The notes under the pieces are model-generated. The model worked only from the letters and a program-made list of their open reading frames with translations. It made no database searches and was not told the origin of the DNA. Positions 17,403 through 44,424 of a DNA stretch of 64,000 nt are shown here, piece by piece. Both the position numbers and the translations under genes were made by a program. Origin of the DNA: Callorhinchus milii (lineage: Eukaryota). The DNA is taken from positions 9,860,001 through 9,924,000 of the forward strand of contig NW_024704742.1 of NCBI RefSeq assembly GCF_018977255.1, given 5' to 3'. Positions within the stretch are counted from its first letter, which is position 1, and the number at the start of each line of letters is the position of its first letter.

Positions 17403-19760
17403 TTTTAATGTTCAAGAGAATTGAATCTGACCATGGGATCTTGACCCAACATCTCCATAGCAACAGTGGGAACCTTCATGAGAGATCCTTCTACTTAGCA
17501 CATGTTCTGCAATGAACTCTCCATAGCTGGTGATACTGGTGCCAAATGCTCTTTGGGAGGCTGGGCTGCCCAATGAGGGTCAAATACCTCCACCTATACC
17601 CAGGCCACTTTTTAGATAATGTTACCAATGCCTCTACTACATTAGCTTTGTACACTGCCTGCCCCTGTTTGAAAGCAGAAAGCCCACTGAGCTCTCCATT
17701 CCCATCTAAAAGGAGCATTCCGCCTGCCGGACCTTCTCCTTTTCCGATCATGGCTGATTCCCCTTCTGACACCCTGTACCTTCACACAACAGTTAAACCT
17801 CCCACAGTGAGTGAGTGCATCTGAGCCATTGTTTGCTCCAAATATGGTTGGGGATGACTGATGCTCTGCTGTGAAATGATCCTGTGTTGTGGGACGAGGC
17901 CCATCAGGATCCCCCTTGTTCTTTCTGTAAACAGAGCACATGGAACGTCAATGGTCACATATCCAGTGACGTTATTCCTATCCCACAATCCCTCCGCCTC
18001 TCTTGCCTCCTTCTAGTGCCGCCTAAGACCTTCCTCTTCAACCATGCCTTCACCCACAAAAACACAGTCAATTCACTCTACAGTATATTCTGTGAAGCAC
18101 TTTGAGACATCTCAAAAATGTGATAAGGCGCTATATCAAATGCAAGGATTATTATTATTCTTTCAACAAATAAATAGAAGTGAGTGGAATATTGAATTGG
18201 GTCCATGAAATATCCTTTACTCACACTTTTGTCATATATTCATGGGAATTTGCTTTATATTGCTGTCTTCGTATTTATTACTCTGCTTACCTAATACATT
18301 AATCTGGAAAAATGCTTTATTCAATGAGGAGTTGCACTTAGCAGATGTCAGTAGCGCTGGTCAGAACAAACTGCATCCAGTTTACCTACAAGTCGCTATT
18401 CTCGACTCCTTGACACATTTTCAGCCCTTATTATTTCCCTGTCAATATATATTTTAAGCACAGAGCAGTTGCAACTCAACTATCTCCAATATGCAATCAT
18501 AACTGCCAGTCTCCCTGCTGTACAAGAATAATAACCCTTTACCTTGGTCAAATTCCAGGTACGCAGCCTCTTTCAAACCTCCTGTCAGGTGTTCCGAACA
18601 GCAGGGATAGCAACGACACCATTTTCTTCCCACACTTCCTGCTCTGACTGTGTGTGAGGAGGAGGTGGATGGGGGCGGGGGGGGGGAGGCGGAGAGAAAG
18701 AGAAGTACAGTTCCTCCCCTGTACAAATCTACTGGCTTTTCTCCATCCATGTCTTCTCAAGGTCTTGGGAGGGCATCTTGAGAAAATCATCCTTTTAGCT
18801 ATTTTCTCTCAAAATGGCATGCCCGAAAGCCTGGATTAACGAAGTTTCAAGTCGAAAAGCCTAAATTGGTTCACATAAGTACTTCAGCAGTGAAATACTT
18901 ATATAAGGCGTCTCCTCATTTTCGCAATTGGCTGCCACGTTTCGCCCACAAAATATACAGTCAATTCACTTTGCCGTATATTCTGTGAAGCGCTTTGAGA
19001 TGTGTAGAAGACATGATAAGATGCTGTATCAAATGCAAGGATTATTATTATTATTATTATATTGAACCTTCCCCACCTGCACTCGGGGTGGTAGGCCAGA
19101 ATGTGTAACCAGCCCAAAACACCTTTGAAATCCTGTACATTCCTATGTTTCTATGTCACTGCAGTTTCCATTACAAGTACAGTGTGCGAATGTGAGCTCA
19201 GAAAAAAAAATCATAAAACAGGCTTTCTGCCTGACATCAAACAATAGCTTTTATGAGTCACTGAACAACAACAACAGAGCCAAGATGGTACATTTGGTTT
19301 ACTCCTCTGAAGTTAGGAATGCCAGCACATCCTCAGATTAGCGTAAGCAGTGTTGCTTTCTCTATGATCCATCTGACGTTTGATCTAGAATCAGCTGATC
19401 GCATAACTCTCCCAATGTTTGCCACTCCTTAGCGCATGCAGAGAAGACTACACTACAGCACCCACCCGCTAGTCCGCAACCAATTTAATCAGCACCAGAA
19501 AGAAATGGAAATAATTTGAAACATGACAACATGCTCATTTGTAACAATGAATTGTAAACGCTGATTAGCATATTAACATGCTTTGTACTTTCCACAGAAG
19601 AGGAGACCAGACGGATTTTTAGATGCATTGTAAATGGGTTAATACCACAACTAAACCATCTTTTGTATTTCCGCCAACCTCCAAAGACTTTAACAGGAGG
19701 AAGGCTTAAGGAGATTCAATCCCACAGACACTAACAGACACAAGCCTCCAAGATACTTAC

Positions 19761-19804
19761 ATTGCCCATTCCAGCTTTTCATTTTTGATCGAGTTGTACA
19801 GCGG
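19761..19804 (-). CDS. PSD3: PSD3 exon (44 nt), end of Sec7 domain: PLYNSIKNEKLEWA(I)
   Basis: tgtttgtcttgcag acceptor and gtaagt donor. LYNSIKNEKLEWA family motif. This reading frame is not shown in the ORF track. Confidence 0.95.
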
Positions 19805-22228
19805 CTGCAAGACAAACAGAAGCAGCCATTTAGACACGTTTGTTTTTTTGAGGAGCTATCAGTTACCTCCATGCTGTAGCAGGACACGCTCAATTAATGC
19901 AAGGCCGTGCATGATAAAACAGAGCCCTTTGAGTAAGCTGGATGGTGAAGGGTGTAAAGCTACAGACGCCTGTGGCACAATCACCCTGCGCGCAATTGAT
20001 GATTGCTGCCACTGTAATGGTTACTCAAATGCCGACAAATATTTTTCACCACATGTCAGTTCTGCACCCCTGATGTAGCAACTATTTAGCTTATCACAGC
20101 AAATCCCAGAAATCAAACTTACTGATTAAGTAATGCTCTTTGCCCTAGGATTTCTATTTTACTTGAAAAAAAATAAGAGATTGAAAAATATACAGAAACC
20201 ATTTGTTTTAGAAACACAGCATGAAAGAAACTGGAGAGGAGGCATGATGATGAGGTTTATTTTGAAAGCAATAATAATATTTTGGCAGTCCAGCAGTTGG
20301 TACCCTCCATTGTAATGCTTCAAATTTTGAGGATCTTTGCAGGAGAGCCACATTATTATACTTCCCGTATAATGGGATGGAAGTGAACAGACTACTTCAC
20401 TGAATCAATTCCAATCAGCATTGGAATTGAGAAGTAAAGACTTGACTTTCACTTTAAGCTATTGGTGAATGCAAATTCATTCACCAACTGCCAAAGCATA
20501 GCATTTGATACAGCATCTGTGATCATCCGGACTTTGAAGCAGGAGAATCACCCGCATAATATCAATATCAATAATAATCCTTGCATCTGATATAACGTCT
20601 TATCATGTAACTGAAACATCTCAAGGTGTTTCACAGGTATAATGTGAAGTATAATGATTGTGTATTTTGTAGGTGTAAATGTTAAAATAATTACATTTTG
20701 TTAACTCAAATAATCAAACCTCAGCTTAGGATACCAGTTATATGTAAAGTAAATATATTTTTATATACTTGACTTTTCGTTATTCTGCAACCTTAAAACA
20801 ATGTCACAATTTGGAGTAAATTTGAGTGCTCCGAGACTACCCCAGCTTTTTAACTCAAACTGTTGTAAATTTCTCTATGGTGATCTCCCTGGTTTAAACA
20901 GCACTTGTGCTAATTCTACACAGTTTTAATTGAGACAAATGTCAATTAGATTGTTGTGATGGTAAAACACCAAAGCCAAGATTCAACAACTCTTTTTTTC
21001 CCCTCCCTCACCTCACCCCTCCATCATCTCCTCCCCTCCCTCTTTCAGTTAGACTCATGTACAACCAAATATTCCTGGAGATTAATCTTGTAGGTCAGGA
21101 CACATACTGGAGCTCGAGCAGTGAAAATAATAAAACAGAAGCATGGTTACTTTATTGTTTTTCTTCTTTACCACATTCATCTTTATTGCTGCCCAGATAC
21201 TACCCTCCCTATAATGTAATAATAGTCTTTGTATTTGATATAGTGCCGTATATCATCAAGACGTCTCAAAGGGCTTCAGAGATACATCATGTGTAGTATA
21301 GCAACTGTGCATATTGTATGAGAACGTAACAGCCAATTTGCACACAGCAATGTCTCACAAAAGCCACCAAGTGAATAACCAATTTTATTCGGGGGATTGT
21401 TGGTCAAGATCCCAGTAGAAACTCCCTTCTTTCTCTTGAATATGGGAATCATGGGATCTTTAACGTCCACCCAAACAGGCACACCCGTCATCAGTTTAAA
21501 GTCTCACCTCCAACAAAGCAGCGCTGCATTGGAGTTTCAGCCTCGACTGAGGTTGAAGTCCCAACTTGGGGCTTGAAGCCTTCTGGATCAGAGATGAGTG
21601 CTTAACATCTATATATTGCAGTATTGACATCATGCTCCCACATTGTTGTACAGATACCATGCTGTATCTGGGAAGCAATGCTGTTTACAAGCGGTAAAGG
21701 CATTTCAATGCTATCAGTGAGCAAATTCTGTAAAACGGTTTACAGAAAACAGACCTTCACCTAAAAGCACACAGACAAAAACCTTTTTAATAGACACAAA
21801 AATGTATTTACAAAAAAAATGTATCCTCATCTGAGCCCACGATAAAATAATTGCTCACTGTAGACACAATCGAAGGATTCAAAGCAAATCTGTGTTCGGC
21901 AGTTCTGTGGAATAGACACATTATCGGGATATTTCTTTTTGGGGGGGGTGGTGGGGGAGAGTTGGGAGAACCGGCACAAAAAGGAACCTCAATCCACTAG
22001 TGAGGAGAACCAGTTCTTTAAAAATAAGATGCCATTATAAAGTATGTGCTAGTACTGCAATCATTGCACATCCAGAACTGTCGACAACCTTCTCTGTAAT
22101 AAACAGCAATGCGTTTTAAGACGCTTTGCCCACCCTGCAGTTACAATTATATTCCTTTTGCTGTTACAAATTCTAAAAGCACTGCATCCTCCTCTACCCA
22201 CGCAAAATAAAAGCCCTTAAATGTATCA

Positions 22229-22290
22229 GTTATTTTTCTCTCCGAGCTACATGGTTCTGCTCAACGAAAGGAAGTTAAGCTGCCTCTCTC
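22229..22290. repeat. 62-bp direct repeat, copy 1 (copy 2 at 23359-23420)
   Basis: gttatttttctctccgagctacatggttctgctcaacgaaaggaagtta...gcctctctc aligns by eye with copy 2 with few differences. Confidence 0.85.
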
Positions 22291-22568
22291 AGTGTGTTTT
22301 TTTTGCTTAAATTGGTCCCAGCCATGGGTTACGAAAATAAAAAAGCCAAATTCTTGAGAAGCTCTTTTTATTGTATTACAGCAAAGGAGAAAAGCTTAGC
22401 TAAATAATACAGATCACCAGCAATACAGCAAGCAACACTGAAAACCCCTGCACAGCAATACAAACAGTGCATGTCGTGTTCCTATCACAGCAGATAATGC
22501 ATAACACGAACAAACACACACACACACGAGCTGTTTCTCATGGCTAAGCTGATATTTATCATTTTTAC

Positions 22569-22736
22569 CTTGCTTTTTGGAGGGTGTGGAGCTGCAAACT
22601 CAGTGGAATAAGAGGTTTTCAGTGACTTTGACCGGCGAGGGTGGTACCTCAATGCATCTTCCCGTCCGTATCTCATTGATCCACCGGTCCGCACTCGGAC
22701 TTTGCTGGCACTCTGTACACTGTTCACACCGATCAT
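22569..22736 (-). CDS. PSD3: Putative alternative first coding exon of a short, Sec7-less PSD3 isoform: MIGVNSVQSASKVRVRTGGSMRYGREDALRYHPRRSKSLKTSYSTEFAAPHPPKSK
   Basis: ATG (ggacATG), exactly 56 codons, then AAG|gtaaaa donor in phase 0, matching the 19804 acceptor. CpG-retaining, repeat-free context. From memory, a MIGVNS-type N-terminus resembles short EFA6 isoforms (unverified). Confidence 0.78.
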
Positions 22737-23162
22737 GTCCGAAAAGGCACTTGCTAAATCTCAGTCTCCCTCTGGATCAAAGGCCTGAGACTGCACTGAC
22801 ACTGCCTAAATCTGAAGTGCAGCAATCAGCATTTGATCAAGATGCATTAGGCGACCACGGGAGTCTTCAGCTTCAAAAGCAGAGAGCCTGCCTTTGCTGG
22901 CGACTTGCAATCCTGTTTTGATTCGGAATGATCATTTCAGGACAGGCTCACAATCGGGGGTTCTAAGTCACTACAGGGGTAAAAAAAATCTCCCCTGAAT
23001 GGATGGAGCCAATGGCAAAAGGCCAGACAGACAATTCATTTACATTCTAAATAGCAACACGACTGCTCTACCGATGTTGGAATGCAAGCTTATTAAAAAG
23101 GTAGGCAATGAGAAGCCACAAATAAAAGCAGAGAACTGCCTGCCAGCTATATGTCGCGAGGC

Positions 23163-23255
23163 AAATTGAGCCTGGATTACGAAAGGGCGTGTACATATAT
23201 AAGCAGCACCAACGCTCGAATCAAATGTGAGCATTCTGCACACACCGTTTATTGG
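23163..23255 (-). promoter_or_regulatory. Putative internal Pol II promoter for the short isoform (CCAAT box, TATA box, Inr)
   Basis: On the minus strand: CCAAT 23255-23251, TATATATG (fits TATAWAWR) 23201-23194, TCAATTT (fits YYANWYY) 23169-23163. About 430 nt upstream of the ATG at 22736. Confidence 0.5.
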
Positions 23256-23358
23256 CAGATTTTTGGTCCTTTTTACTCGCGCCCCATTACAGAGAGAGCT
23301 GCTGACAGAAAGCATCAGTATGGATCACAAAGATTGATGTCCGTGTCAATTTCAGATT

Positions 23359-23420
23359 GTTATTTTTCTCTCTGAGCTGCACGGGTTCTGCTCAACAAAA
23401 GGTAGTTAGCCTCTCTCTCT
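23359..23420. repeat. 62-bp direct repeat, copy 2
   Basis: gttatttttctctctgagctgcacgggttctgctcaacaaaaggtagttagcctctctc. Confidence 0.85.
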
Positions 23421-24139
23421 CTTGGTTTAGGCATTGTCGTCACTTGTCTAAAGGATTCTCACGATAACGTGATTTTTCTTGCACCGCAAGTTTCAGATCT
23501 TGCCACTTTATTTAACAGCAACTTTCATGCTTCAAGTTTTTATGTACCTGTATGTGTATATATATAAAACTGATGCATGATATGAATATATAACATTCGC
23601 ACCCAATAATATATCAATCATGAATACTTATAGATGTGTACACACATACTATATAATTTACATTATGTTATTTGTACTATACGTAAACAATACACCCAAA
23701 CACTTGGAGCCTATATTTTAAATGCCTAAAATTCGATAATTCTTGCATGCTCAAAAACTCCGCACCTCTGGTTTTAAAACAAAAGTCCATAATTTCTCTT
23801 CTTCAGTAACTGCAAGCCTACAATTAAAGGGCCAACACTAAACATTATGACTCCCATTAAAAATCAAGCCATTACAAGAATTACAATGAATATGATTCTC
23901 TCACCCCCCCCTCCATACACCCCACCCCCAATTAGTGATCAAATGATGGTGATCAGGTAATGATTTAAAGGATCTGCTCATTCCAACAGTGCAGGAGCAT
24001 TAAATTAACATGAGATACCAGTATTAACGCAGGGTGCTTCAGCTTCTGCTGTGTGCATTTTAATTCATTACCTTCACACCATAAGCTCAGTAGCTGCCCC
24101 GAGCTATTGTCTGCACATCATCAGTAGTCAGCAGTTCAA

Positions 24140-24362
24140 CTGGAAATCTGGAACTCTCTCCCCCAAAAGGCTGTGGATGCTGGATCCATTCCCATCTTCA
24201 AGACTGAGGTGGGTAGATATTGTTAGGTCAGGGTATTAACGGATACGGGGCAAAGGCGGATAATTGGACTTGAGGTACGGATCAGCCATGATCTTATAGA
24301 ATGGCAGAGCAGGATTGAAGGGCTGAATGGCCTACTCCTGTTTCTATGTTGCTATGTTTCTA
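24140..24362 (+). mobile_element. CR1 3' end fragment
   Basis: tggaactctctcccccaaaaggctgtggatgc...gatcagccatgatct...gggctgaatggcctactcctg. Confidence 0.85.
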
Positions 24363-24454
24363 ACAAAGCGTAATTCTAATAAAACATTCAACAGAAGTTA
24401 CAAACGGAAAGAAAAATTCAAAGGGACGTCAAAAGTTGATACAAATTGTATTTG

Positions 24455-24583
24455 ACCTTTCTTCATGAACCAATCGAAACGTTAACTAATTTTCCTCTCT
24501 CCATAGATGCTGCCTGACCTGCTGCTTGTTCCCAGCGACTTCTGTTGTTATTTCAGATTTCCATCATCTGCAGTATTTTGCCT
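24455..24583 (+). mobile_element. Penelope-like element terminal fragment, second copy
   Basis: cgaaacgttaac...ccatagatgctgcctgacctgctg...tttcagatttcca.catctgcagtattttg is the reverse complement of 14600-14700. Confidence 0.6.
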
Positions 24584-26769
24584 TATCTTTATAACAGGGT
24601 TCTACTGTACAGAACATGTACCCGTCGAAGTGCACTTTGCATGGATTTCAATATAATTTACATTATTTGTTTAGACTTGCAAAGGAAGTAAGAAACTCTT
24701 TCCTTTTAGCAGCAGTTATCAGTTACATGAATTCATCACATCAACCATAACTGTTGGCAGTCAGTAAAGTGCTGAGGCACTAATTCAGTGAGCAGTTTAG
24801 ATGAAAACATCCATTCTGGTAGTAACATCAACAAAGCGATGGAATATTACCTTAAACTCACCAGTTGGTTTTCTTATTGATTACATTGTTTGTAACTCAC
24901 ATTCCTGTATACCTATATTCTTATATTCACTTTCCATATCGTTCACGATAGAATGCAATTGAACGCGAGAGGAGGTAGAGTGTTTATGGAGTGATGTGAA
25001 GGATTAAATCATTCATGATAATGATGCTTTCATTTGATACAGCATCTGTCTTATCACATCGTGCAAGATGTCCCAAAACGCTTCACAGGACATACTGTAA
25101 AGTGTAGTGACTGTGTATTTGTGGTCAGCCAGCACAGCAATCGTCCCACAAACAACCATGGAGTGAGTGACCTATATTACTCCTACCTACCTCTGTGACC
25201 TGCTAACCCCTTATCAACCTGTCAACTCCCTCTGCTCAGCGGGCTCTGGCTTGCTCCACGTCCCCCACCTGGCCCACCCCACCATTGGCAGTCGGGTCTT
25301 CCTCCCTGCCCTCCACCCTCCCTGATCCCAGTACCCCTTTGCTCGGGCCCAAATCCCTGTCTGTCCAGCGCCTTGGGACGTCCTCCCAACTTGAAAGGCG
25401 CTATACAAATGTAATTTTGTATTTTATCTGGGGGATTGTTGGCCAGGACACTGGGAGGAACTCCTTTATCTTTTCTACAGTGCCATGGGATCTTTGACAT
25501 CCACCTGAACAGTTTAACAGCACCTCAAACAATGCAACACAATCTCAGTCCTGCATTGGAGTGTCAGCTTAGACTACCTGATTCCAAGTTCCGACGTGTG
25601 GCTTGAACACCCACAACTTTCTGACTCAGAGGCGAGAGTGCTACACATACAACTGAGCCAGACTGAAACAAATTTACTGTCAGAAGCATAAAGATTTTTG
25701 AGTTTTGTTTTGAAAGACCAGCAAACGCCTGAGATATGTGTGAATAACATGAAGACTGGTCCCATCAAAGTTATTAAATAGCTCCAAGGAACTACACTTA
25801 ACAAGTAATTATATATGAAGCACTACATAGGCTTTGCAGACTTTTCATGACCTGCTACAGATAAATTCGACTTTTCTTTTTATGTAATTACGTAGTTCAT
25901 TACATTTATAATGGCCCCATTCACGTCAGGAGGATGGCTCGTGAGACAAAGTACCAGCTCAAGATGGACTCAGCACCTGGCTCTCGCAAATTCCAGAAAA
26001 TTGTTCAGTTCAAAATGATTTTGTTATCACGTGGTTTTGTCATATTCATTAAAAGATATTTCTAATTCAGAAATTTAGCTGTGAGGCACGGAAAGCAAAC
26101 TACATTATAAAACATTTTGCATTACCTTTGCCTACAAAATACGCAGTCACTACACCTTACATTACATCCTTTGATGCACTTTGAGGCATCCTTCTAATCA
26201 GTGGCAGAGCCATTGGTCATTAGTGGTCCCACCTTCCTGTTGCTCTCCTCACTGCCTCAGGCCTCCAGCTCCTCCTATCTTCCTTTCACTCTCCATTGCA
26301 GCCTCTCACAAGGTTGTGCAAGGCACGAGTTAGTGCACAGAGTGATGGGAAGTGAGTCAGAGTGGGAAGCAAAGATGCCATACATACACCTATTAGCCGC
26401 TGGGGTGGCAACCTCCACACCTCCCCCCCAACCCCCTATTACCTCCCCCACTGCTCCCTATGTGAAAGGTACTATATCAAATGTAAGAATTATTATTATT
26501 CACATACTATCGCAGTTTATTTATTTTAGAAATTATTGTAAATGGTAACATGCAAATGCGAGTAGAGAAGCAGAGAAATCTGGTTTGTGGATACATACAT
26601 AGGCTTGTGGGACACTGCTGTGCACAATTGGCTGTGGTGTTTCGCCCACAAAATATACAGGCAATTCACTTTACAGTATATTTTGTGGAGCTCTTTTGAT
26701 ACGTCTCGAAGACGTAATAAGGCGCTATATCAAATGCAAGGATTATTATTATCATCATTATTAAAGGGG

Positions 26770-27190
26770 GCAGCACAGGGAGAGAAAAGACAGCAGAGAG
26801 ATGAAATCGGTGGCTTTATATCCAGAGGCTTAGTAAGGAGGTAATGATGAGCTAATGCTGAATGTAGACCATGGTTAGGGCTCAGCTGGAGTACTGTGTA
26901 CAGCTTTTGGCACCCCATTACAGGAAGTATGTGAAAGCCACAGAAAAGGTGCAATGTAAATTCACTGGGATGTCATTCGGGATGAGGGAGTTTCAGATAC
27001 TCAGACAGACTTGAGAAGCTAGGGCTTTTTTTTCACTAGAGTTGAGAAGGTTGGTGGGGGGGGGGGGGGGGGAGGTGGAGTAGGCGTGGTGACCTGACAG
27101 ACGTCTTCAGTATGAGAAACAGTATGTTAGTGTGAACAGAAATAGATTATTTGCACTGGTCAGGGAGTCAGGAACAAGAGAGCAAAATTA
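26770..27190 (+). mobile_element. Degraded CR1 fragment
   Basis: cagctggagtactgtgtacagcttttggcacccca (LEYCVQ..AP motif). Confidence 0.75.
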
Positions 27191-29063
27191 AACATGACCT
27201 TTCTGACCCCTCTTTAATTCCTTTCTTGGGTGGTTTTAGTCAACTGATCGCAATTGAGGCATTAAAAAATCCATTGAAAAAAAGTTCAGCAAGAGTGATA
27301 AATGCACCATTATTCAGAAGCGTGTGGAGTAAGGAAACTTGCCTAAAGTTTCGTCCTGCCCAGGAACTGAACCCAGCCCTCAAACCAAGTTTAACAAAGT
27401 GAAGCGAGAACTGTGCACTGACAACAACAACAAACAACAACAAATTACATTTATATAATGCCTTTCACGTCGGGATGATTCACGTCCCAAGGCGTTGGAC
27501 AGCCAAGGGCTTGCACCTGAGCTGAGGGTTGGTCGACAGGGCAAGTGGTCAAGGTGCAAGGTCGTGAAACGGGCCTTGAAGAAAGTAAGGGAGGGAGCGA
27601 GCTGGGAGACTCCAGGAGGGAGTTCCAGATGATGGGGGCAGAAATGCTGAAGGCCTGACCGCTGATGGTGGAGCGGCTAGGGCAGGGGACATGGAGCAGG
27701 CCATACTGGCTCATTGAAATGTAGAGAGCATCTGTGAACAGTGTCACTGGGAGCCAAGCAGAGGGCCTCTGTCTTGTCGACATTCAACTGGAAAAAGTTG
27801 GCCATCAGGACTTGATGGGTGACAAAAATCCGTCAGGACAGCAGTGGCCCAGGAGACGAGGGTGGAGGCAGAGAGATGGAGTTTGGTGTAATCTGCATAT
27901 ACGCATAAGATATATATTCTATATAGACGATATCACTGAGCAGAAGCACGTAAATATTGAAGAGAAGATTAAGGATTAAGGACAGAGCCCTGAGGAATGT
28001 GATGGTGCGAGGGCTGGAGGAGAAGCCAAAGTGGAGATGATGGGAAAAATAAGAGTGAAACATGTGACATGTGTGACCTAGACCATAGCTGACAGACAAA
28101 AATAACACCTGCAATATATGTAACGCCCTTCACATAGGATACCTCACAGAGACACTATGGATAAAGCAGGTGCCTTAGAGAGTTTGCACATGGCTGGGTT
28201 GCTCCTCTGTGAGCTGAACAGTTTGAATGTTACACAATGATGGCAAAATCTCAGCATTGCACATGCCTGAACTTTCACGCCCAAGATAAGGTCAGGCCTC
28301 AAAGTGTCAAAGTGCCTTCTCGGCTGCAGAATGTTGATTGTTTGCCTCTTTTGACGCCCTTTATCAGGATGTTATCCAGAATAATCGACTGTTCTGCCTC
28401 TGGCAAAAAAGCAGTTTTGTGTGGGGGAACATTGGGAGCGCTCCAAAATTACAACCAACACCTAATATTCTACACTGGTTAACATTAGCAACTTGAGAAA
28501 TCTCTCACCCCTTCTCTATTTCTCACCGAGGCTGGCAGGCTTCCTAGTAACACTTGGCAGGAACATAGCTGGAAATGAAGATTTCACTGTTGCAACAAAA
28601 GTTGCAAAAAAAAACTCTGTCATAATAAGGATGGAGTACTTTGGAATAATAATAATTCTTGCATTTGATATAGTGCTTTCACATCTTCCCGAAGTCTCAA
28701 TTGCACATAGCAGTGTCCCACAAACAGGCATGGATTGAAGTGACCAATTTATTATTGCTTTGTTTTTGTTTTTCTTGAGGGATTATTATCAGGAGGGTGG
28801 AGTAAGGAAACTTGGCCAAGGTTTCTCCCTGCTGGGAATTGAACCCAGGTTTCTCTGTTGCGAGGCGAGTGCTCTAACCATTGTGCTACAGGACTCCACA
28901 ATGATCTAATGATTAAATATTAGTCCGTCACAATTGTATTTTCAAGGAAAGCCCCTCACAAACCGCCTTGTTCTCAACGCTAATACAGGTGGGGAAATAA
29001 GAGTTTGTGTCCACCACAAGTTTCAGAATGAACTCATCGGACAACTGTTTCCTGTGCAGTGCA

Positions 29064-29507
29064 GGGGTTCCTGTAGCTCAGTGGTTAAAGCACTCGCCTC
29101 GCAAGTGAGAGACCTGGGTTCAACTCCCACCAGGGCAAAATGTTGGGCAAGTTTCCTTACTCCACATGCCTCTGTTTACCTAGCAGTCAATAGAAACCCG
29201 GTTGTTAAGCGCTCTGAGACTCTACCTTGCATGGAGGGTGCTATATAAGTGCAAGTAGCTGTTGCTGTTAGTCGATTGGCAGATCGCATTTCCGGGAGTA
29301 ATAAATCCTTCCAAAAAAAATAATAATTTGGTCACTCAATCCACGATTGTTTGTGGGACACTGCTGTGCGTTATTGGCTGCCCTTTTCGACCAGCAAATA
29401 TACAGTCAGTCCATTTTACAGTATATTCTGTGAAGCGCTTTGAGACCTCTCGAAGATGTGATATTAAAGAGCTATATCAAATGCAAGGAATATTATTATT
29501 ATTTATT
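29064..29507 (+). mobile_element. tRNA-headed SINE interrupted by a ~60-bp L2 tail insertion (29208-29265)
   Basis: The SINE body is split at ccggttgtta|gtcgattggc, with TGTTA duplicated on both sides of the insert. Confidence 0.85.
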
Positions 29508-31217
29508 ATAAGTTCTCCATTGTCAGAGGTGCCGTCCTGGGGATGAGACTTTAAACCGAGGTCTCATCAGCTGGTTCAGGTGGATGTTAAAGATCCCACA
29601 GCACTATTCAAAAAGAGAAGGGAATTTCCCCCAGAGTCCTGGCCATCAATCATTTCTTGGCTGATTGTTGGACTGCAGTGTGTAACTGACTGCTGTGTTA
29701 CTGCAAACAGTCACCACACTTGAGAGCAATGGCCTGTGCAGCCTTTGAAACATTGTCACTATAGGCACCATCAAATACAAAGGTCAGGATAACATTGAAG
29801 GGGGACAAAATTACAATCTTGGCATTAGAAATAGTGCAATTCACATCGGGACCACATTTCAAAGCACTTTACAACAATAACAACAATTTGCATTTATCTA
29901 GCATTCCTCAGGCTCAGTGGTGTCTCGAAGAGCGTTACAGGATACACTTTAAAATATAGTGACTGTGCATCTTGTCGTAAACGTTGTGTACCAATAACAC
30001 TGTAGATGCATAGAGTGGTATGCAGTACTCAATAAGCGCCTTAGGACATCCTCCTAATGAGAAAGGTGCTTTACAAATGTAATTTTGCATTGTACTGTAA
30101 TAGAATATTAACACTGATAGTTAATACTAAGAGTTGGCATTTGCAATTAATGGTCTTTAATATACATTTAACATTAAGTATACAAAGAGCAGTACATTTG
30201 CAGATCTTTACTGGGAATTTTATTTTCATAATTTGCAATTTCTGCAACCCAATTAAATAGCAACCCATGAATACCACAATATCTAATTAGTCTTCAATAC
30301 ACTCTGCCCCTTAGAATTTTGAATATCTCTATTAAATCTCCCTATTAAACCTTCTGTTCTCTAAGGAGAACAATTCCAGCCTCGCTAGTCTTTCTACATA
30401 ATTGTTATCCCTCAACTCTGGTATTATTCCAGTAAATCTCCTCTGCACCCTCTACAAGGCCATGTCATTCTTCCTAAAGTGTAGTGCCCAGAAAGATATT
30501 GAAAGGAATTGCAGAGGTGGGGAAATCACAGGTTAATGGGACTAAAAGGATTGCTCTTTCAAAGTGCCAACAAATACACAATGGGAACAGTGGCTTTGTT
30601 GTAAACAGTGCTGTAAATTCAATGGTTCTCTGACTGAAGAACAAGGGACAGGGAAAATTCAGTTCTGTCAATATCTAACAGCTAGACAGGCTTATCATTA
30701 TTAATAATCCTTGCATTGGATATAGTGCCTATCACACCTTCAAGACGTCTCAAAGCGCTGCACAGCACCTACTGTGAAGGGTAGTGACTGTATACTTTGT
30801 GAGTGAAAATACACAGTATCTTATCAAATTCTTATCCGAGTTTTTACCTGTGATTTTTTGTTTATGTGCGCCACTTGGAAATGCTATTTTTAAGTTTAGA
30901 ATTTCCCGTCAGTCTGAATATGGTCATTGCTCTCAGCCAAAACTACGCGTTCATAATTCACTGGAAGCTGAACTGAAAGCGCTTTCAGCCACTAAGTCCC
31001 GAAGCTCTGGAACACTCTCCCTCAATCCCTCCACCTTGACCCCTCTCTCCCCTTACTCAAGTCCCGCATGAAAAGCTTCCTCTTTGACCATGCTTATAGT
31101 CACCTCCCCCGCCCCAGCTCGGAGTCAGGCTCCACCAAGTGGTCTGAGATGTTACCCTGCGTGGAGGGCGCTATGTAAGTGCAAATTGTTGTTGCTGAAC
31201 GCTCACAAACAGACTAT

Positions 31218-35016: not shown

Positions 35017-35120
35017 GGAGTCCTGTAGCTTGGTGGTTAGAGAATTTGCCTCGCAAGTGAGAGGACCAGGCTGGGTTCTCGGCAGGGCGAAACATTAGGT
35101 AAGTTTCCTTACTCCACACA
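35017..35120 (+). mobile_element. 5' half of the SINE split by the L2 (3' half at 36525-36755)
   Basis: ggagtcctgtagct...gtttccttactccacaca, resuming after the L2 at ggaacccggttgttag. Confidence 0.85.
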
Positions 35121-36523
35121 CAGCTGCGCTCTTTCCTCTCCACCCATTCATTATTCGAACCCCTTCAGTCGGGTTTCCGTGCTGCCCATAGCACAGAAAC
35201 TGCCCTGGTCAAGGTCACCAATGACATCCTGACCATCTGTGACCAGGGCTCCCTCTGCCTCCTCGTCCTCCTCGACCTATCGGCAGCATTCGATACAGTC
35301 GACCACGCTATCCTCCTCCACCGCTTGTCCTCCCACCTCAACCTTCAAGGCCCTGTCCTCGAGTGGTTTAGGTTGTACCTCTCCCACCATCTTCACTTTG
35401 TCTCCACGAATGGTTTTACCTCCAGCCCCCGCACTGTCTCGTGCAGTGTCCCTCAAGGCTCTGTCCTCGGTCCCTCCTCTTCACCCTCTACATGCTCCCC
35501 CTGTGGTGACATCATCCGCAGACATGGGGTTAACTTCCACATGTATGCGGATGACACCCAACTCTACCTTTCCTCCTCTACCCTCAACTCCACGACCACC
35601 GATGTCCTGACAGCTGCCTGTCCGACATCGAGTCCTGGACGAGAGACAACTTTCTTCAGCTCAACGTGCGCAAAACTGAGGCCCTCCTGATTGGCTCACG
35701 TCAGCGCCTCCGCACCTCAGGCGCTGACAGCATCAGCATCCAAGGCTGCACTCTCCACCTCTCAAAGCCAGTCAGGAACCTCGGGGTTCTGCTCGACCCT
35801 GAGCTGTCCTTTCTCTCTCATATCCGCACCACAACTGGCACCGCCTTCCATCACCTCCGGAACATCGCCAGATTACGTCACTACCTCACGCTGCTGAAAC
35901 CCTGGTCCACGCGTTTATCACCTCAAGGCTGGACTATGGGAACTCTCTCCTCTCCGGCCTTCCTGGCACCTCCCTCCACAAGCTGCAGGTCATTCAGAAC
36001 TCTGCAGCTCGTGTACTGTCCCGCACCAGGCTTCGCGACCACATCACTCCCACCCTCGCTCGCCTCCACTGGCTCCCCATCCCCCAGAGGATCGAATTCA
36101 AGATCCTCATCCTCACCTACAAGGCCATTCACGGCCTTGCTCCCTCCTACCTCTCCGACCTACTATCCCCCTATCTACCTGCCCGTACCCTCCGTTCCTC
36201 TGGTTCTGGTCTGCTCCACATCCCCCGTCCCACCATCGGTGGCCGGGCCTTCAGCCTCTCAGCCCCCAGGCTCTGGAACTCTATCCCCCAGTGCCTTCGC
36301 CGCCTCCTCCCTTTCCTCCTTCAAGGCCGGTCTCAAGACCTTTCTCTTTGACCGTGCCTTCAGCTCCCCTCTCGACTCTCTACCCCCTCCTCGCTCCCTC
36401 CCTTCCCTCCCCTCACCCTGACCATTTCCCCCCTGCTCGGGTCCTGACCCAACTGTACAGCGCCTTGGGACGTCCTCCCGACGTGGAAGGCGCTCTATAA
36501 ATGGAATCTTGTTGTTGTTGTTG
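35121..36523 (+). mobile_element. 5'-truncated young L2 LINE (RT domain to 3' tail, frameshifted), inserted into a SINE
   Basis: QSGFRAAHSTETALVKVTNDIL, LLDLSAAFDTVDH, VPQGSVLGP, HMYADDTQLYL and [13 protein letters not shown] motifs, then tail agcgccttgggacgtcctcccgacgtggaaggcgct and (GTT)n. Confidence 0.95.

Positions 36524-44169: not shown

Positions 44170-44424
<255 letters not shown>

Follow-up and report, generated by a model that had tools for sequence, protein, structure and literature searches.

Short isoforms that lack the Sec7 domain have been described for EFA6A and EFA6D. EFA6As is a product of EFA6A/PSD that comprises the PH domain and the C-terminal region (Sironi et al. 2009, J Cell Sci, as cited in PMC6522047 and PMC6915736), and EFA6D1s and EFA6D2s are products of mouse EFA6D/Psd3 that contain a PH domain and a coiled coil (Fukaya et al. 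2016, J Comp Neurol, as cited in PMC6522047). According to the account in PMC6522047, which refers to Sironi 2009 and Fukaya 2016, EFA6As and EFA6D1/2s have the PH domain and the coiled coil in common. In PMC6915736, the short isoform of EFA6A is likened to the PH-Ct construct of this protein, the C-terminus is described as bundling F-actin, and the short isoform is stated to have caused branching of dendrites in PC12 cells. The PH-Ct construct produces actin-rich membrane protrusions without exchange activity (PMC6915736). A 50-kDa EFA6C band is left unexplained in the relevant part of PMC6522047, and the human isoforms in the available part of PMC13131818 are Sec7-containing ones only.

We analysed a stretch of 64,000 nt from Callorhinchus milii (“the window”), in which a reading made from the bare letters (the sequence-only reading) had proposed a hidden alternative first exon, deep in an intron of PSD3, that gives rise to a Sec7-less isoform. 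The class of isoforms is already known, i.e. it is in print for mouse (EFA6D1/2s) and is widely annotated in databases, so that the attribute “hidden” has to be dropped. An annotated counterpart is isoform X5 of PSD3 from the ray Mobula hypostoma, which has the same architecture (N-terminal peptide, K/ALYNSIKNEKLEWA, linker, PH domain, and coiled coil; about 375 aa; the slash marks the exon junction here and below). In the first exon it is 73% identical to the window, and in the linker exon 91% by tblastn. Isoforms X4-X10 in bichir, frog, birds, squamates, teleosts, and mammals are equivalent to X5 of M. hypostoma. A PSD3 protein of Mus spicilegus (390 aa) has the same MIGVNSVQ... start as the peptide encoded in the window, and the mammalian peptides are 64-69% identical to the latter, depending on the measure. 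The published mouse isoforms are products of the same gene and likewise consist of the PH domain and the coiled coil without Sec7; their presumed identity with the isoform considered here is based on the database proteins of M. spicilegus and other species.

The isoform differs from the other described systems in several respects. EFA6As is encoded by a different gene, and the first exons of the EFA6A type have only a common core with those of PSD3, i.e. MIG[VL]NS, RY, and R-x-[KR]-[ST]-L-[KR], in a comparison that was made with PSD1-type proteins of fish. The PH-Ct construct has the same domain content as the predicted short isoform, but it is an engineered truncation without the conserved 56-residue N-terminal peptide. 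A protein with the window's own peptide was not found in the database, where the best match has 73% identity, and therefore the short PSD3 isoform seems to be unannotated for this genome.

The PSD3 locus and its alternative first exon

By tblastn, the exons are arranged on the minus strand in the order Sec7 exons, candidate exon, 44-nt exon, and linker/PH exon. The features are given below with their positions in the window and the evidence in brackets; X1 and X2 are sequencing runs, and P0064 is a full-length PSD3-like protein from the database.

61210-61013, minus strand: Sec7-domain exon (tblastn)
57715-57632, minus strand: Sec7-domain exon (tblastn)
55520-55407, minus strand: Sec7 exon carrying GETQERER (tblastn; Pfam Sec7 PF01369, profile positions 85-121, E 9.7e-8)
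52047-51988, minus strand: Sec7-domain exon (tblastn)
44340-44251, minus strand: last Sec7-domain exon of the full-length isoform, the donor of which, AAG/gtatgg, competes for 19804 (tblastn, splice sites)
22737-23561, minus strand: transcribed leader 5′ of the ATG, reaching no less far than 22970 in X1 and 23561 in X2 (contigs)
22569-22736, minus strand: alternative first exon, coding part, ATG plus 55 codons (sequence, homology, X1/X2 joint)
19805-22568, minus strand: intron of the short isoform, 2,764 nt, GT..AG on the gene strand (X1 and X2 contigs)
19761-19804, minus strand: shared 44-nt exon, end of the Sec7 region, with the acceptor for the canonical and the alternative upstream exons (splice sites, tblastn, P0064)
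453-260, minus strand: linker and PH-start exon, INEEELRKSLSEL...HADMDGKK (tblastn, splice sites, X2 loose end)

The assignment of the gene to PSD3 in the sequence-only reading proved correct. Sec7 exons are present upstream, the linker/PH exon shares 98.5% identity with a protein listed in the database as PSD3-like, and in a tree of 151 rows the locus falls into the PSD3 clade with a support of 98, apart from PSD, PSD2, and PSD4. The ATG at 22736 lies downstream of all Sec7 exons (61210-44251). The exon aligned by Pfam with the central part of the Sec7 profile (positions 85-121) is located 33 kb upstream of the alternative start; its GETQERER stretch is taken by us to hold the catalytic glutamate. 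Because of this upstream position, the GETQERER exon is missing from the short isoform.

The candidate first exon begins with an ATG at 22736-22734 on the minus strand and has 56 sense codons, which translate into MIGVNSVQSASKVRVRTGGSMRYGREDALRYHPRRSKSLKTSYSTEFAAPHPPKSK. Its last codon, AAG at 22571-22569, ends in phase 0 and is followed by gtaaaa, the donor gt being 22568-22567. The canonical upstream exon, which ends with ...KELLK AAG/gtatgg at 44251, is likewise in phase 0. The canonical intron has a length of 24,446 nt, and the alternative donor is found 2,764 nt upstream of the acceptor at 19804. An in-frame TGA is present 8 codons 5′ of the alternative ATG (the stop-to-stop frame is 22485-22760), and no in-frame AG acceptor was found between this TGA and the ATG; hence, the alternative exon cannot be read as a continuation of the phase-0 exon that ends at 44251. 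The GC content is 0.47-0.49 at the alternative exon and lower, at 0.31-0.43, in the adjoining part of the intron (19000-22599), and neither a tandem repeat nor a strong CpG island was found at the exon.

The acceptor of the 44-nt exon reads ...ttgcag/CCG at 19804, and the exon (19804-19761) encodes PLYNSIKNEKLEWA plus AT, followed by gtaagt. Joining of this AT to the first base of the exon at 453 gives the codon ATA for Ile, the residue that had been predicted from the sequence for the split codon. The coordinates, the 56-codon frame, the donor AAG/gtaaaa, and the phase match to 19804 were also found to be correct upon inspection of the sequence and its translation. The full-length protein P0064 reads ...ELLK/PLYNSIKNEKLEWAI, which confirms the acceptor as well as an unusual Pro at the start of the 44-nt exon.

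The first codon of the 44-nt exon (19802-19804) is CCG for Pro, and the same Pro is present in P0064, which is the full-length entry of the closest species. In contrast, the annotated short-isoform architecture has Ala at this position. Among 10 aligned PSD3-type orthologues, eight have Ala and the others Gly or Thr; in two PSD1-type proteins the residue is Val in one and Ala in the other.

The peptide was searched against longer proteins in a collection of 5.8 billion proteins, and 20 proteins with E ≤0.01 were retrieved among 32 candidates (best E 4.9e-13). These single-sequence matches include PSD3 isoforms of 373-390 aa from ray, bichir, lungfish, frog, a mouse species, and primates. A profile built from seven N-termini yielded 61 proteins with E ≤0.1 among 3593 candidates from the same collection, with E-values down to 1e-27, and it widened the range of taxa to marsupials, birds, turtles, squamates, and several orders of teleosts. 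PH domains without Sec7 are present in 36 of the 61 proteins, all of which begin at the Met of the MIGVNS exon, 18 are short fragments without a Pfam match, and seven are gene models that include Sec7. All matches that were named after a PSD gene by their source are called PSD3, with the exception of one PSD2 (Varanus), and the other names are generic. Of the 56 positions, 27 are invariant when eight sequences ranging from ray to primates are aligned. The orthologous annotated isoforms run ...K/ALYNSIKNEKLEWA-linker-PH, i.e. their junction is identical to the predicted one. A search of the own genome with the 56-aa peptide revealed one copy of the alternative exon in the assembly, which makes a processed copy unlikely. 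Another match in the own genome (contig C1070, E 7.3) was rejected as a chance match, and a Pfam match of the peptide to DUF6158 was rejected at 16.5 bits with a cut-off of 26.8.

Taken together, 22569-22736 is confirmed as a genuine alternative first exon of PSD3 that is conserved across jawed vertebrates. Conservation of the codon frame had been put forward as a check of the proposed exon, and it is seen as peptide-level matches from ray to mammals with the same K/ junction.

A homologous first exon in PSD

The genome contains four EFA6-type loci, on the contigs C1, C7, C13, and C28. For the paralogues, the sequence from the last Sec7 exon up to the linker exon was extracted, i.e. 12.6 kb (C7), 1.7 kb (C13), and 0.5 kb (C28), and the intron in the window was used as a positive control. 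When the profile was applied to the six-frame ORFs of these intervals, one ORF of C7 was detected with E 7.4e-5 among 2226 (control E 7e-35). The intervals of C13 (PSD2-type, L009) and C28 (PSD4-type, L010) gave no profile match better than E 18. A search of the orthologous introns of PSD, PSD2, and PSD3 in other vertebrates had been suggested with the original proposal; the profile search in the own genome revealed the exon in the PSD-type locus, and not in the PSD2- and PSD4-type loci.

The ORF on C7 (L008:2365-2210, minus strand) is a 52-codon frame opened by an ATG, starts with MIGVNSV, and ends with AAG/gtaaga in phase 0. It is located 1,415 nt upstream of the 44-nt exon of its own gene (L008:794-751, reading VLYSSIKNEKLQWT plus 2 nt), in the intron that follows the last Sec7 exon, and it has the same intron position and phase as the exon of PSD3. 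The search of the own genome with the 56-aa peptide had missed this exon, which was found only with the profile restricted to the introns of the paralogues. The 52-aa peptide (P0211) retrieved nothing with E ≤0.1 among longer proteins, with only five candidates, and the homologous exon on C7 is probably unannotated in this genome.

It was only when the profile was applied to 234 fetched proteins that related proteins came up, namely a “PSD1-like isoform X10” of the zebra shark (384 aa, E 2e-7), two sturgeon models, and one darter model. All four of these PSD1-type fish proteins begin with MIG[VL]NS. The zebra-shark isoform X10 and one of the sturgeon models pass straight into the sequence of the paralogue's 44-nt exon; the darter model has extra sequence ahead of it, and the second sturgeon model does not show it. 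Fourteen first-exon peptides of both genes were aligned, and they have MIG[VL]NS, a central RY, and R-x-[KR]-[ST]-[LM]-[KR] in common.

The paralogues were assigned with a FastTree phylogeny of 151 rows, which was built on the PH/coiled-coil region. In this tree, C7-type proteins fall together with PSD/PSD1 of axolotl, lungfish, marmoset, and platypus (support 98). C13 is placed among PSD2-type proteins (support 100) and C28 within the PSD4 clade (support 99); the tree does not resolve the branching order of PSD, PSD2, and PSD3. Rows P0142, P0149, and P0152 of a library at 50% identity proved informative. The short proteins of this library (10 of the 150 listed) were rejected as candidates, as they are fragments or have internal starts or unrelated N-termini, and none has MIGVNS.

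A UniRef model of C. milii, P0089 (349 aa, PSD2-type, C13, L005/L009), has a PH domain and an N-terminus that is unrelated to MIGVNS and maps inside the short PSD2 intron. This N-terminus may stem from an erroneous gene prediction, or it may represent another type of start without Sec7.

The presence of a homologous first exon in the same intron of PSD/EFA6A indicates that the exon arose before the duplication that led to PSD and PSD3. The suggestion that the design with two promoters is older than the split of the paralogues thereby gains support from the C7 orthologue of PSD as well as from shark, sturgeon, and darter. The MIGVNS first exon is likely to be an ancestral module, older than the separation of PSD and PSD3 and present before the last common ancestor of jawed vertebrates; both genes would have kept the signature and the motif, and PSD2 and PSD4 would have lost the exon secondarily. 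A published statement of homology between first exons of the EFA6As and EFA6Ds types was not found in the literature searched, to which the primary isoform papers did not belong. The homology of the first exons of the short isoforms of PSD and PSD3 is possibly the sole fresh point of this analysis.

Transcript contigs, the leader, and other readings of the exon

For the exon, 12 sequencing runs were listed, none of them recorded as RNA; six contain the stretch, and the contigs of four runs (X1, X2, X3, and X7) were placed on 19000-30999. X1 and X2 belong to one study, and their classification as RNA is by guess only. A joint between 19804 and 22569 skips 2764 nt; its ends are CT..AC when read on the plus strand and hence GT..AG for the gene. 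One contig of X1, with a depth of 12.6, and one contig of X2, with a depth of 507, contain this joint; in both runs the shorter side of the joint has 27 letters, which is below the 31-letter rule for bridging records. The X2 contig covering 22569-23561 (993 letters) has a mean depth of 196, versus about 5-10 for intronic contigs of X2. In addition, X2 has a loose end of 30 letters at 19761 that matches, as reverse complement, the 30 bases with which the exon at 453 begins, showing that X2 contains spliced transcripts of the PSD3 gene. The joint is absent from X3, in which a contig spanning 21452-23904 is colinear with the genome. It is also absent from X7, which stems from the same study as X1 and X2, and this blank was read neither for nor against the junction. 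The junction from 22569 to 19804 that the sequence-only reading had predicted is thus present as an exact GT..AG joint in the contigs of X1 and X2, with a 27-letter side and from one study with a guessed RNA status.

Upstream of the ATG, the covered leader contains 11 ATGs, each of which is closed before the main ATG. Because of these 11 upstream ATGs, translation would be hampered if the entire covered leader were 5′-UTR. Contigs cannot show the start of a transcript, and the end of the X2 contig, at 23561, coincides with a TA-rich low-complexity run. The stop of the X1 contig at 22970 coincides exactly with a candidate acceptor, t-run...cctgtag/ (22971/22970; window 22970-22990, minus strand), and it is possible that an upstream non-coding leader exon is spliced into 22970. 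Such a non-coding exon and a transcription start closer to the ATG would each fit the contig data.

The pattern of frame and donor by itself is not beyond chance, and it is the homology and the spliced contigs that raise the exon above this level. Frames of such a size are common, i.e. the whole window contains 658 stop-to-stop frames of at least 45 aa. The intron has 29 ATG frames of at least 50 codons on the gene strand, two of which have a phase-0 GTRAG/GTAAA donor after at least 50 codons, so that a donor-like site in phase 0 is found for one further frame. An open frame and a GT that occur in the intron by chance would be in line with these counts, but this reading is contradicted by the homology, with E-values down to 1e-27 among 5.8 billion proteins, and by the exact spliced joint in two runs, and the homologous exon in the PSD paralogue also speaks against it. 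We regard it as virtually inconceivable and have rejected it.

The exact end of the X1 contig at the polypyrimidine...tag/ site (22971/22970) would also suit a “poison” exon, an internal cassette that is included, e.g. via 22970, behind the last Sec7 exon and ahead of the 44-nt exon, and that encodes no protein but down-regulates PSD3 through stops in the full-length frame. The seven of 61 database models that combine Sec7 and the MIGVNS peptide in one protein point in the same direction. These seven models resemble read-through predictions, and the one that was examined as a whole has unrelated, intron-like sequence ahead of the Met. A non-coding poison exon does not need the conservation of amino acids that begins at the ATG and extends across jawed vertebrates and to the paralogue, and it does not agree with the 36 of 61 profile matches that are PH-only proteins starting at the Met of the MIGVNS exon. 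Furthermore, the X2 contig is colinear with the genome beyond 22970 to 23561, and no joint to an upstream exon is found among the joints listed. A cassette exon is accordingly judged to be very improbable, and an alternative first exon is the preferred reading.

The intron also contains other features. On the opposite strand, a fragment of a reverse transcriptase is present at 35103-35690 (plus strand; Pfam RVT_1, E 1.9e-19), which is probably the remnant of a retroelement. Beside it, long frames continue to 36500, including frames of 288 and 200 aa without a Pfam match. The summed contig depth is very high at 23800-24600, 25000-25800, 26600-27400, and 28600-29800 in all four runs, reaching up to about 5e5 in X3. 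With their many joints and loose ends, these stretches look like high-copy interspersed intron repeats.

The predicted product and its meaning

Pfam domains were determined for three orthologous short isoforms, which have PH_9 and PH only, and for a long model, which has Sec7 and PH. The window itself holds only the start of the PH region (453-260), and the PH/coiled-coil architecture is taken from the orthologues. These results, together with the position of the Sec7 exons upstream of the start, agree with the claim of the sequence-only reading that the product is devoid of Sec7. The proposed order of peptide, 44-nt exon, linker, and PH domain is matched by the annotated orthologues, which read ...K/ALYNSIKNEKLEWA, and by the joint in X1 and X2.

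As an overall explanation, it is very probable that an internal promoter of PSD3 gives rise to a Sec7-less short isoform, which is the orthologue of the known one and begins with an ancient exon. A promoter inside the 24.4-kb intron after the last Sec7-domain exon of PSD3 (EFA6D) would drive the transcript, the first coding exon (22736-22569) of which would provide the ATG and a basic, serine-rich N-terminus of 56 residues. Splicing in phase 0 to the 44-nt exon at 19804 would be followed by the exons for the linker, the PH domain, and the coiled coil. The predicted protein would thus consist of the 56-residue peptide, the remnant of the last Sec7 helix, the linker, and the PH domain, and it would be the orthologue of the known Sec7-less PSD3 isoform (mouse EFA6D1/2s; about 375 aa as annotated from ray to primates). 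Because the catalytic Sec7 core is missing, it is predicted not to perform nucleotide exchange on Arf6.

To judge by EFA6As and the PH-Ct construct, the short isoform would most likely be located at the PI(4,5)P2/F-actin cortex. It would bind to the cortex through its PH domain and its C-terminus and would reshape actin or bundle it without involvement of Arf6, and it might compete with full-length EFA6 proteins. The literature on these relatives suggests a function as a plasma-membrane/actin scaffold that is independent of Arf6 exchange. It is less likely, albeit conceivable, that the short isoform is mainly a dominant-negative competitor of full-length EFA6 for PI(4,5)P2, F-actin, and C-terminal partners, and not an autonomous organiser of actin. 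The entire PH and C-terminal region is common to the short and the full-length forms, which is in line with competition, and the GEF-independent effects of PH-Ct in the literature are compatible with both modes. However, membrane recruitment of the C-terminus alone is described as sufficient for actin-rich protrusions (PMC6915736), which argues for an autonomous activity.

The sequence-only reading had taken RRSKSL and similar motifs of the N-terminal peptide as candidate sites of basophilic kinases. The motif R-x-[KR]-[ST]-[LM]-[KR] is present in 65 of the 66 fetched proteins that carry MIG[VLI]NS. A conserved basic motif with a Ser followed by Leu/Met and a basic residue presumably fits sites of basophilic kinases in general, and the motif may be regarded as a candidate phosphosite.

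With regard to annotation, an unlisted short PSD3 isoform is added to this genome, and the gain for biology is modest. The case illustrates that a reading of the sequence alone can find real alternative first exons. For studies of the short isoforms, the conserved N-terminal peptide with its candidate phosphosite represents a defined target for mutation. The conservation from cartilaginous fish to primates, together with the homologue in PSD, suggests that Sec7-less EFA6 isoforms are an old and selected feature. If the ancestral origin of the first exon holds true, the conserved R-x-[KR]-[ST]-[LM]-[KR] motif would be a probable phospho-switch, and the exchange-dead PH/coiled-coil protein would be an original, separately regulated product of EFA6 loci rather than a neuronal curiosity of mammals.
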